Source: Lingula anatina (Eukaryota > Animalia > Brachiopoda). Taken from it: 64,000 nucleotides of DNA. The position numbers were made by a program, and so were the translations under genes. Below, piece after piece: positions 16,101 to 22,100 of the stretch. The notes beneath the pieces are model-generated. The model worked only from the letters and a program-made list of their open reading frames with translations. It was not told where the DNA came from and made no database searches. The stretch's first letter is position 1; the number at the start of each line of letters is the position of its first letter. The stretch covers positions 25,550,401-25,614,400 of the forward strand of contig CM120641.1 in assembly GCA_051362555.1 (NCBI GenBank), read 5' to 3'.

Positions 16101-19100
16101 ATAAATCTTACACATCCTTACATGAGGCAGAATATATTTCTTAGTACAATTATGAAAATTAAAAAAAAAAAAGAGAGCAAAGCCCATGATGAATATTTAT
16201 AGAAGCAAGCTACTAAAACAAGCCCTTATCTTGCTTTGAGAAAAATATAAACCACTTTGGATTGACTATCATTGAATTTAACAGTATATGTGTGATTTAA
16301 AATCACACAAAAAAAGGAAGGAATTTGCTACAAAAAGTATAGAAAGGAAGTGAAATATAAACTAGAGAAAGATGTTGGAAACAAGAAGAGAACACAAAGA
16401 AAAATTGATAGATTTCGATGATGCCAATGAACAACTAATTATTTTTCTCAAAGCTTTTCTAGTTATCAAATTGAGAAACAGGCAAAAATGTTATCAACTG
16501 TATCCCGTTGGCTTTTTATTAATGAATCTGAAACCAAATTTAGCATGCATTATTTTTATGCATTGAATCAGATTCTACTGGTCTTAGATACATATATGTC
16601 ACATTGGACTCCTGATTCAGGCAAATCAGTGCAAGCCCTGTCTCTAAAAGCTTTGACATTCAAGAGCAGCCTTCTGATCTAATATTAAGGAATATACCAC
16701 TGTTTTGCCTGTATCAGGAGGTCAACCATGCCAGAGACATATATCTGCCATTCCTACCTTGTTTCTCATTTAGAGCATTTCCATTGCCATACACACCGTT
16801 GACAGACTTGTACTTTTTAGAGGACCTGCAGCCCCAGTATGAAGGGGAAACAGGGAAGTACCATGGCTGTGGGAGCCCAAACTTTCCTGGAAGGGAAAAA
16901 TTTACACAATTATGGTTGATTTAACTTTCACATTACAATCAAACTGATATCTTATTAAATATCATGTAAGAAAACAAAACATGTCAAATATTTCTTGACA
17001 TGTATTACTGGTTTAAATTCAAATAAATAGCATTTCAGAATCAGCGCCTTCTAAATTTAATTCACAACCAAATGATCATTTTTTTTTCGTACCTGGTTTG
17101 ACATGCCTGACATACCACCCAATCAACAGATAGATGGCGCTGTCAATCAACATCATATAAATGGCCCAAGCTAGGTTGAACTGATCTCCAGGTATCAAAC
17201 TCTCATCAATATTCTGCCAGTTCATGCCAACAGCTTGTAACTCATATCTTGCCAAGTAAGAACAGGCATAACCAAAGGATGTGGTAGATGACAGACACTG
17301 AAAACAGGAGAATTCAATTGTTGTGTATAATGGCATATTTATTATAATATCAATGTCCTGTAAAGGTTTTATATTTCAATAAATAAATAAATTACAGATG
17401 TATGAACCATTTTAATAAAAACATGATCAAGCAATATGTAGTCAAAAAGATACACCAATATAAAAATATTACTCATTCATTTCAATGAGTAAGAAAACTT
17501 ACAGAAAGAATCTTATGCCAGAACACCATTTCCTGCTCCATGGTAACCACCACCACATATGGCAGGTAGGTGATGAGGTAGACAAGGATGCCAACCAGAG
17601 CTGCCACGTTGGTTCTTGTGAAGAATGAACTGATCAGGTAGCTGGATAAAAAAAGAGAGACAAAGTTTTCACATTTGATCACTTTTAGTCACTAACAAAT
17701 AATAATAAATTCTATACATATTTTCATGACTTATCAATAAATCTTTCTCACACTGCCCAAAAAATATGGTTAAGGAAATATTATACTCATTTCATTTTTG
17801 AGGGAGTTAAGAGAGCAATTCGAGTACTTCCACTTACCACATCATAACGGTGGAGAATGCAAACACAAGGAGGAACACAAACAGCAGCAGGGGGTCGCTG
17901 TAGATGACAACGTTGCTGACTTTGAGGATCAGAGTTATGAGAGCAACTGTGACAGTCATGGTGAACATGGTGGTGAAGAACCATCCCAACCAGCTCACCA
18001 GGGGGCGCATCCCCATGATCTTCATCACCTGAGGCAGACGACAAAATAGAAATTAATATAAATTCTGGATGAACATTTCTACAAACAAATTAGGAGATTT
18101 TACTTAATTTTGAGTCAGATAGTAACAACATCCCAAGAAACAAACAAACAAACAAAAAATAATAATAATAATAAAAATAAATAAATAAATAAATAAAAAT
18201 TATTTGATAAAATGTTTTTTTAAGAAAAAAATGACTTTAATTAAATTATGATACACAATTTACATATAATATAAAGAAATTAAATCCTTAGAAATGTATA
18301 TTCAGCAAACACATCATATCACTAAGTTATTCTAAACCATGAAATGACTATATTTAGTAAAAGATAACATTATCAACAGATACTATAACACATCTGCTTT
18401 AATTTGAAATTCAAATACATCAAAAGAAGTAACAAACTAAATCAGTGAGATTATTTATAATGCAAACAGTGCAGCAAGAAACACGCAGGAATTGTCACAC
18501 AGAATAATAGTTGACATGTAAGATATATAAAATGGTTACAAAAATAGTAATGGCATAATATTCCTTGTGTGTCAGGAACATTTGCCAAGCCTTATATAAG
18601 TGCAGATGTGACTAAAAAATCAAGTAATTCAGAGAACTTCTGCATCCCCATAAACTAGTCCACAGGATACTTTCTAGATATATAAGAGCTCTATGAATAT
18701 AGAGTATTTGTTCCTGAAGTCTAGGAGTGTTTGTCTCAAAAATGTATTTTTTCATATCTGCTAGATCTCAATAATGATTGAGTAAGACAAAAAGTTTAAG
18801 ACTAGACTATGGATGATCTTGAAGTAAAGTTATCTATGAAAAGGCACTAGCTGGCACTCCACTAATATTATCAACCACCATACCTCATCCAGTCCTCGCT
18901 CTCTGTCATACACAAGATTCCTGGTTGCCATGGCAGCTGCACATATTAGTGCAGTTAACATAACAACAGGGAGTCCATATGACAAAGTATATAGCATAAA
19001 CCTGAAAGCATGCCAATAGAAATGTAATACAAAGCAAGCATAAGCATATCAAGCATTAAGCAAAATGTTTAAAAACTTAGTCCCCTACCTCGTCCAGGCC

Positions 19101-22100
19101 TTTTTCACGTTCGTATGTAGCAGATTTGATAGCTACGGCTATTAAGCCAACAAATGCCAGGGTTATTACAACAGGGAGGAGGTAACGAATAAAATAGCTG
19201 CTATAGCTGAAAATGAAGGTGTACTTTTACAAACATGAAAGGCAAAACTGATGACAACAATTTACATATAATATGTTTCTTAAAATTTTTCATTAAAAAG
19301 AGAGTACCTTATTCATTTGTTTATACTCTGATGAATCTCTCTTGATGAGGCAAGTGTAAATCAGTGATACATGTAAAAGCACTGGTCAAAGTTAAATACA
19401 CTGCAGATGAACAACCAATCAGAATAAACCTTACTTTGAGATGCAATCACAACCCAATCCAATACATAAAAAGATCTTATTCTGAGCATAAGGAAAGAAT
19501 AACCATTACAACTTCAACATAATATCTGCATAAAATATGTAATTTCATAGGTCTAAAGGAATGCATATATAGACATCAATACTTTCCACCATAATTTCAG
19601 AATGGTTCTAGACTAATGATTTTAATCAAATTGTTTTTTTCTTAATTAAACCATATAGTCCAACAATTCATCAATATCAAAAATAACAAAAAATTATAAA
19701 AAATAATTCACTAAATCATTGTCATCATACTCAAATTTGGAATTTCAGCCATTGCATGTGAAGACTTACTCATCAGTGTGGTAGCAGGGATAGGGGAACT
19801 GCTGGACTGCCACAGATGGCTTGGTCACACTCTGGCCAGCCTGAAGGTCAATAATGGCATGGTCAATCATGTCCTGCATCTGGACGAACCCACGCATGTA
19901 CCTCATGTCACTGGCAAAGTTGGCCTCTGGACCTGGCATCCATATACTGAAAAGTGCGAAGGATTTTACATATAAACTATATATGTTGGTTTTGAGAAAA
20001 TTGCATGGTGCCCCTTGTTTTAGTACAAAATTGCCAAATGCTAAACATGTTCTGATCTGGCTTAAGGACTATTTTACACCAAATTTATAATTGAACAGTT
20101 CAAATTTGAACTTGGATAAAAATTAATCTAGTTCTTTGGCTAATAGACAATATATATCCCAGAATGAGTGACTCCAGTTCATTTTTGAAGAAAGATGTTG
20201 AAACCTGCAGGAGATTTTTTTTCACCTGTTAAATTCATGCAATCTTCCATTAGAAGATAAGTGATGAAAGTGCACATCATCTTAAGTGAAAGAAAAATAT
20301 AAATGAACTAATAAAATGTGGCATGAAATGTTACTAATATCTTACATAGTTTTGAGCTTATCCGTCCTTGGCACATTTTCTATGTCCATTCTGATCTTGT
20401 ATTTGATGTGTTTTGGCAAGTCCACCACTGGCTCAGACCGCTTCTTACGGTTGTTAGCACTATCCATATCCAGGAAAACAATACCTGCAATGAAAACAAA
20501 ATTATGTACTAGAAATTAACAATAAAAGATCGACAAAATCAATTTCTTCACAAGTAGCTTATCATAATAATATGACAGAGTTTTTGCTCATTATTTCAAA
20601 CTCTATTTGAGCATTACTCACTTGCTTGCAGCTCGTTTGTTCGTCTGAGTTCTCTAGCCCTGTTGACAACTTCTTCCTCTGAGTCATAACCCTCAAATCT
20701 GAAAGTGAAACAAATATTTGCTTTCAAGGACCTAGTTTTTAATCTTTTTTTTCTTTGCAAAACCCTAACATGGCATCTTGGTTTCCAGTTTCAGAGCTTT
20801 TAGGCACATGTTTCAAACTTGCCTTAAAAAGTAATCAATCACATCACATTTATGTTACGAAAAAATCACTGCAAGAAATCCAAATTGTCCCCAATAACAA
20901 CACGAAAAGTAGTCAGCTGATTTAGTAAAATATAATTTATAAATTTTAACAAAAAAGTTACCTGTCCAATTGAAAGCAGTCGTAGAACCTCAGAACTATT
21001 CTAACAAGTGACTTGATCTTGTCCAGTTCTTCTTTTGGCAGGGTATTAAATTGTTCCAGACTGGTAGCAAGCTGCTGGCCGTTCATGCCCAAGGTCTGCT
21101 CCAGTGCACCACTAACAAATGGATTGGACAGAGCTGCCTACAGTCAAAAAGAAATAAATAAATTAAAATAAATGAATCAATGATAAATAAATAAATAAAT
21201 TAATTAATTAATTAAATAATTTATAAGGTAAAATAACGTAAAACATTTTTCATCGTTACTTCAGTGTATTAAAACATAGAAACCATATGATAACTTTTAT
21301 CTATCTTTTTGAAAAGTAATTATAATTGATGAGGTGGTCAGCCTGGAAAGAGAACTTAAGCAAAATCTTTAAGATTTAAATCGGTAATCTGCAATAACCT
21401 TAATTATATTAAATATCAAGCATTAAAATATCAAGAGGGTCACTATATGTAAATCTCTGAACCACAGACAATTCATAAAATTTTTCTTAAAAAATGGTTA
21501 GTTTATCTCAATCTTTAGAGTGTTTCACTATTTTTGTAACAAAACGACTTGAGTACATACTTAATTATTTGCAAGATTACGAGACAGATTATTCCTGATG
21601 CACATACCGTGATTTCATTTAATTGTTGAGATCTGTTCATCAAAGCATCCAAACTCTCTGAACCATCCAGGAACACCTGCATGAAATCTTTGGTCTTCTC
21701 CAGCTCAGCAAATGTGAAATTGGTCTGAAAAAAATGCATGTCCTTTAATAGTCTCATGATGCAACTATTTTCAAGTACTAAATTTAATATAATTTATTTC
21801 ATCCCTGTATTTGACTGGGAAACCAGCTGCTATCATGGGTCCTTGAAATTATTTTTGTTTTAAAGAATGAAGGATGATTTTATGATATAACATAATCAAA
21901 CAAATAACAAAACAATGTTAACTTACATTATATATGCTTATTCTAAGTGACATGAAGTAAAATCAACCACAGCAAATAAAAACCATAATATCTACACTTC
22001 CCTCAGAAAATTTCAACAGTCCAGGGGATATCAAAAATAATCATAGATATTGAAATGCTTAATACAGACAAAAAAATGTCTCTGAAGATTTTATGGAGTT

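Follow-up and report, generated by a model that had tools for sequence, protein, structure and literature searches.

Twin exons for the second transmembrane helix, probably mutually exclusive, in a giant ABCA transporter gene of the brachiopod Lingula anatina

Introduction

Can a gene of ABC transporter subfamily A (ABCA) carry two interchangeable versions of a helix that lines the path of its substrate? The question is raised by a 64,000-nucleotide stretch of the Lingula anatina genome (assembly GCA_051362555.1, contig CM120641.1, positions 25,550,401 to 25,614,400 of the forward strand; hereafter the window), in which two neighbouring exons of a giant ABCA gene, here termed A and B (Table 1), each encode transmembrane helix 2 (TM2) and the start of the intracellular helix that follows it (IH2). 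The pair is a real, old and constrained duplication of the exon for this substrate-lining helix, and we regard it as probable that the copies are mutually exclusive.

Table 1. Coordinates, within the window, of the twin exons, their neighbours and their host gene
Feature	Position	Strand	Description
Exon A	19206-19089	minus	TM2 and start of IH2; major form; reads across its junctions in 3 of 4 runs and over the exon itself in all 4
Exon B	19001-18884	minus	second copy of TM2 and IH2 start; likely a restricted form; open, AG/GT, no junction listed
A-B intron	19088-19002	minus	87 nt, separates the exon copies; read cover in run X1 only
Upstream exon	19946-19770	minus	constitutive; end of extracellular domain 1 (ECD1), FPYPC motif, phase-2 donor; RNA joints, ABCA matches
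Downstream exon	18028-17838	minus	constitutive; remainder of IH2, TM3, TM4; ABCA1 match and RNA joints
18-nt exact AT-rich repeat, copy 1	19257..19274		51-68 nt before the A acceptor
18-nt exact AT-rich repeat, copy 2	18255..18272		in the intron after B
Host gene	564..63670	minus	giant full-length ABCA; repetitive ECD1, two transmembrane domains, two nucleotide-binding domains (NBDs); 5' end likely beyond the window

Results

Structure and paralogy of the exon pair

An earlier, sequence-only reading of this DNA had described two open exons of 118 nt in phase 2-0, separated by a short intron and bounded by canonical splice sites, and both the coordinates and the two peptides were reproduced here. 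Each exon is flanked by AG and GT and is open from base 2. The copies are identical at 16 of 39 residues (41%) and at 59 of 118 nucleotides, the matches being distributed over codon positions 1, 2 and 3 as 21, 23 and 15 of 39, respectively. Their BLOSUM62 score is 81, a value that 100,000 shuffles did not approach (31 at most), and tblastn pairs them at E 3e-7; the same program found no third copy of the TM2 exon within the window (next best E 0.058). A and B thus display the features by which tandem exons are recognized, namely neighbouring homologues of equal length and frame, free of stops and bounded by canonical splice sites. Indeed, when a profile of 28 ABCA C-terminal halves was compared with the gene exon by exon, positions 128-168 were the sole stretch matched twice in tandem.

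As 118 is not a multiple of three, the inclusion of both copies, or of neither, puts the transcript out of frame. This prediction of the sequence-only reading held when the exons were joined: the upstream exon, A and the downstream exon read open, as do the upstream exon, B and the downstream exon, whereas the forms containing both copies, neither copy, or A, the intron and B each encounter stop codons, which in the last form lie four codons past A. The two peptides have in common the motifs LPVV and Y-x-R-E-x-G-L-D-E and, as had been proposed, diverge across the membrane span, with only 3 of 17 residues matching in columns 14-30, the inner half of the helix.

The host gene

The host gene is an intact giant ABCA transporter of the ABCA12-like clade, from a spiralian outside Mollusca. 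The upstream exon has 285 ABCA matches at E<=0.001, the downstream exon matches ABCA1 671-731 (E 9e-9) and ABCA4 687-747, and for exon A the alignment, to ABCA1 639-668, is weak (E 0.9). Exon B alone gave no ABCA match in a PDB search and neither copy gave a Pfam match, because the exon is too short; word-based protein searches of sequences up to 2,000 aa likewise returned no match for exon B or for the upstream exon. With the profile of 28 C-terminal halves, the exons from the end of ECD1 to the second regulatory domain (RD2) were found in order, those matched being stop-free, and the gene contains two ABC_tran matches. The order of an ABCA full transporter, TM1-ECD1-TM2-6-NBD1-RD1-TM7-ECD2-TM8-12-NBD2-RD2, is therefore seen, with TM1 not located in the window. 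The repetitive ECD1 is encoded upstream of the exon pair across about 43 kb of exons; within 31000-55000 it includes internal repeats that span several exons, for example the 44941-43954 region against 43326-42566, at 35-52% identity.

Giant ABCA relatives were found in molluscs, an annelid, a priapulid, arthropods, a crinoid and fish. Overall, a chiton protein matches best, followed by one from an annelid, each at about 51% identity. In a quick tree of 29 rows the host gene falls in the ABCA12-like clade, apart from the ABCA2-type (SH-aLRT 99, for a clade of 24 rows), and outside Mollusca (99), with its position beside the annelid unresolved (88). It is orthologous to the giant ABCA12-like transporters of molluscs, annelids, chelicerates and insects (the fly ldd clade; P0190, P0191, P0174-P0194), which consist of 3,000-7,000 aa, share the repetitive ECD1 and are about 50% identical to it over the C-terminal half. 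Judged by these orthologues, the host protein would exceed 5,000 residues.

Constraint on exon B

Had exon B been a degenerate copy, its frame or splice sites would be expected to show it; instead B is open, its AG and GT are intact, and it retains the TM2 sequence pattern. A profile was built from 25 orthologous segments, of which 23 are mollusc or mollusc-like and the other two come from an annelid and a crinoid. On this profile A reaches 49.9 bits and B 49.0, while the orthologues themselves, each left out in turn, span 34.6 to 91.9; both copies are low in this range, as expected for a non-mollusc. At conserved columns the consensus residue is present at 15 of 24 positions in B and at 11 in A, with M14, T26, N28, L29, V30 and D32 kept in B and lost from A. 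Residues unseen in the 25 orthologues number 8 in B (including G9, L15, T16 and C20) and 6 in A.

Between A and B the proportion of synonymous differences (pS) is 0.67 (95% range 0.46-0.88) and that of nonsynonymous differences (pN) 0.44, giving a dN/dS of about 0.41 and a bootstrap P(pS<=pN) of 0.035. If rates were equal, the bootstrap range of pS would mean that each branch has undergone 0.36 changes per site or more, and the flanks of the two exons align no better than shuffles. Neutral decay was simulated from two orthologue segments, 4000 copies each, with indels not modelled; after 0.4 changes per site only 2 and 0 of 4000 copies were open, spliceable and at 49 bits or above. Because synonymous sites are near saturation and yet B scores as well as A on the profile, an outcome rare under neutral decay, B has been constrained as protein, by purifying selection, for most of its history.

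Age of the pair

Exon A is closer than B to the TM2 of chiton and crinoid (BLOSUM 96 versus 74 and 94 versus 66), with which it shares rare residues, and B is closer to most gastropod and bivalve TM2 segments, with which it shares ATRNLV; both copies end in GLDE. On these affinities the duplication could be older than the divergence from molluscs, a reading that we hold only tentatively. A tree of the 39 columns neither recovered nor rejected a clade of A and B (p-AU 0.316).

Among 20 metagenome loci, 15 carry one TM2 each, all of them ABCA1/2-type paralogues and not orthologues, and the remaining five have no TM2 match. Most of the host-derived paralogues of this type (L001, L003-L016) read straight through TM2 into the next segment; in locus L019, by contrast, the frame seems to be interrupted where it is in the window gene.

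Splicing of the two copies

RNA evidence was drawn from four (X1, X2, X4 and X7) of nine raw-read runs under the same species label, 6-25% of each being sampled. Junctions were listed at a threshold of 3 reads at 2 starts, and reads resembling human DNA were dropped, which may thin junctions into the conserved downstream exon. Exon A is spliced into mRNA. The junction from the upstream exon to A (19770 to 19206) is crossed by 7, 18, 0 and 10 reads in X1, X2, X4 and X7, respectively, and that from A to the downstream exon (19089 to 18028) by 1, 1, 0 and at least 10, the X7 figure comprising two displaced rows of 10 and 11 reads; run X4 has six reads in total. The latter junction bridges the downstream copy, as mutually exclusive exons demand, and is present in X1, X2 and X7, while no A-to-B joint reached threshold in the four runs, in keeping with the criterion that such copies are not productively joined (PMC5740500). 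Further RNA joints connect 20346 with 19946 and 17838 with 17641.

In X1, a stranded poly(A) run, sense reads cover exon B at about 4.7x, as estimated from bin means, and the A-B intron at about 2.9x, which amounts to about five reads altogether. This cover ends near the B donor, the introns on either side are at zero depth in the same run, and no intron of the stretch other than the A-B intron has real read cover. X1 thus contains transcripts extending from A across the intron into B, and perhaps also a small number with B only. Variants among the reads are synonymous in 28 of 32 cases overall, in 4 of 4 in A and in the single case in B. Across 17500-20490 run X7 departs from the window at many fixed sites, mostly synonymous ones, unlike X1 and X2, which points to a different haplotype or population, or to a sibling species carrying the same label.

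How exclusivity may be enforced

In mutually exclusive splicing by steric hindrance, donor and branch point lie under 50 nt apart, an arrangement given for 9% of human clusters (PMC5740500). The A-B intron contains branch-point-like words at about +9, +30, +37 and +45 from the A donor, is free of AG for the 74 nt before its acceptor, and is seen retained. An intron of this kind would be hard to excise, and we infer that steric hindrance may lie behind the exclusivity of A and B, with frameshift and decay as a back-up against double inclusion. Two other candidates were rejected. Docking and selector pairing would call for stronger duplexes than those found, the best with the A-B intron reaching -15.9 and -18.1 kcal/mol against shuffle medians of -18.1 and -18.9, and weak donors do not single out the pair, as GTAAG is also missing from several constitutive exons of the host gene. 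The fold of 18860-19300 (z -2.36; 2 of 100 shuffles as good) was not counted as evidence.

The exon pair is flanked by an exact 18-nt repeat that has two copies only in the window and none in the A-B intron. In a control of 336 segment pairs, an equally long match arose from one dispersed repeat only (8 overlapping pairs). A weak complement of the 18-nt repeat lies at 19520-19545.

Discussion

Weighing the evidence

The explanation that we favour, and consider probable, is that A and B form a mutually exclusive pair in which A is the major form and B is spliced in instead in a restricted tissue or stage; B would there replace A to give two transporters differing in TM2 and the start of IH2. 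It should be emphasized, however, that a number of observations weigh against this view. The junction counts that the sequence-only reading had proposed as its check came out divided: A junctions are present in three of the four runs, but neither an upstream-to-B nor a B-to-downstream junction reached threshold in any of the four, each read in part. Exon B is at zero depth in three of the runs, and its cover in X1, together with that of the intron, fits a non-productive A-intron-B transcript as well as it fits a B isoform. Unlike the host gene, the annotated isoforms and close orthologues of the giant ABCA12-like family have one TM2 exon within each of 12 informative groups (13 were examined; the Thunnus group was excluded as BLAST had placed the wrong helix), and no twin TM2 exons occur among these groups or the 15 metagenome paralogue loci, the nearest proteins being about 50% identical. 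The pair therefore looks lineage-restricted, or else is unannotated elsewhere. With respect to constraint, 317 and 74 of 4000 simulated copies still pass after 0.2 changes per site, with which a recent loss of function in B would be compatible, and although A and B agree more often at conserved columns than elsewhere (12 of 24 versus 4 of 15), the difference does not by itself reach significance (p 0.13). Finally, 16 of 176 background sites show an AG-free zone as long as 74 nt, and a word at about +64 in the A-B intron could serve as a normal branch point.

It could be argued from these points that B was long a working alternative exon and is now rarely or never productively spliced, the reads in X1 being aberrant, degraded A-intron-B transcripts that used the B donor. 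The missing B junctions, the three runs that lack B, the retention of the intron with B in X1, the eight residues unseen in 25 orthologues and the compatibility of the simulations with a short recent decay all accord with such a history. The exact length of B, its open frame, its intact AG and GT, a profile score equal to that of A and a lone, synonymous variant do not; moreover A, which is certainly used, itself has six unseen residues, and the RNA sample was small (part of each of 4 of 9 runs). We consider this explanation unlikely.

An alternative role for B is that of a poison element, whereby splicing from its donor, or failure to remove the A-B intron, yields an out-of-frame transcript and turns the transporter down in some tissues. 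B is indeed visible in RNA only with intron cover, and the form that includes A, the intron and B stops soon after A. Such an element, however, needs no conservation at the protein level, whereas B still fits the TM2 profile (49 bits) and shows a pN lower than pS, and that B is kept mainly for this purpose seems improbable. An assembly artefact or a recent, functionless tandem duplication is very improbable, given the 50% nucleotide identity of the copies, their near-saturated synonymous sites and unalignable flanks, and the RNA reads that fall on both copies and on the intron between them.

Consequences of the proposed swap

If the two copies are exchanged as proposed, which part of the transporter is altered? 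Structural mapping was by ungapped offset, with column 8 corresponding to ABCA1 638 and ABCA4 653. By this offset the exon ends at ABCA4 684, and since IH2 of ABCA4 also takes in L686 and G690 (PMC7796138), the exon covers TM2 and no more than the beginning of IH2; the earlier assignment of the segment to TM2 was borne out, but its extension to the whole of the following helix was not. In ABCA4, R653 of TM2 binds lipid phosphate and residues 649-650 touch acyl chains, and IH2, which sits between TM2 and TM3, is thought to couple to the NBDs (PMC8501128, PMC7796138). The same helix is thus concerned here as in human ABCA4 and ABCA1, where TM2 contacts bound lipid. Unlike in ABCA4, the R653 equivalent is Tyr in A, in B and in 25 of 25 orthologues, and the TM2 start of the host clade is one residue longer. 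At the neighbouring position A carries an Arg that is unseen in the orthologues; B there has Ser, as is common, and then a Gly that the orthologues also lack. The B helix is smaller and less hydrophobic, and A has lost the conserved Leu-Val ahead of the Y-x-R-E motif.

Because the Tyr and both motifs are shared while columns 14-30 have only three matches, the swap would tune lipid handling or helix packing, and would not replace a head-group contact. On sequence grounds an effect on pocket shape, packing or coupling is plausible, and a change of substrate, amounting to a switch in lipid specificity, is hypothetical. The full proposal, in which tissue-specific splicing exchanges the pocket-lining TM2 and the start of the coupling helix to produce two exporters that may differ in lipid cargo or gating, we put forward only tentatively and rate as somewhat doubtful.

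Relation to known exon swaps

Homologous, interchangeable exons also occur in other ABC transporter genes, as tandem duplicated exon substitutions have been described in subfamily C, in Drosophila MRP, C. elegans mrp-1 and human ABCC9; substitutions of this type are enriched in ion transport genes and arose independently in several animal lineages (PMC9741552, PMC6071210). The host gene differs from these in belonging to subfamily A, and from fly MRP, which has up to eight variants and competing RNA pairings, in having two copies and no convincing docking or selector pairing.

Exon pairs that swap part of a membrane transport protein are known also in a vertebrate channel and a vertebrate carrier, CaV1.2 and SLC25A3. 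The exon copies of these two genes are more alike than A and B. Exons 8 and 8a of CaV1.2 swap one transmembrane helix (PMC3060452), and SLC25A3 is listed as a tandem exon event in the supplement of PMC9741552. In the human tables of mutually exclusive exons (PMC5740500) the only ABCA entry is one ABCA1 cluster, a TM1-exon candidate without evident homology. An ABCA entry may exist among the 236 human events counted in PMC9741552 or among the fly genes that it lists by CG number. In the openly searchable literature, judged by titles and the beginnings of abstracts, no report of an ABCA TM2 exon swap was found.

For ABCA transporters other than ABCA1, 3, 4 and 7 little is known of the substrates or of what determines them, and understanding is poorest for the giant ABCA12/13-like members (PMC13161189). 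If the proposed swap is real, two natural TM2 variants within an otherwise identical protein would offer a ready-made controlled experiment on the role of TM2 and IH2 in lipid choice and coupling, and subfamily A would join the ABC transporters with independently evolved exon swaps.

Other features of the window

The window also contains, within an ECD1 intron, a retrotransposon of the long terminal repeat type on the plus strand (25295-30720), whose open reading frame (25396-30372; 1,659 aa) has matches to reverse transcriptase, RNase H and integrase. The element carries at both ends a direct repeat, identical over at least 71 nt, which suggests that it inserted recently. Intronic sequence in 59100-61900 contains two copies of a dispersed repeat that are identical at 94 bases or more, and a GC-rich (63-67%), low-complexity stretch of short repeats lies at 62313-62560 in AT-rich surroundings.

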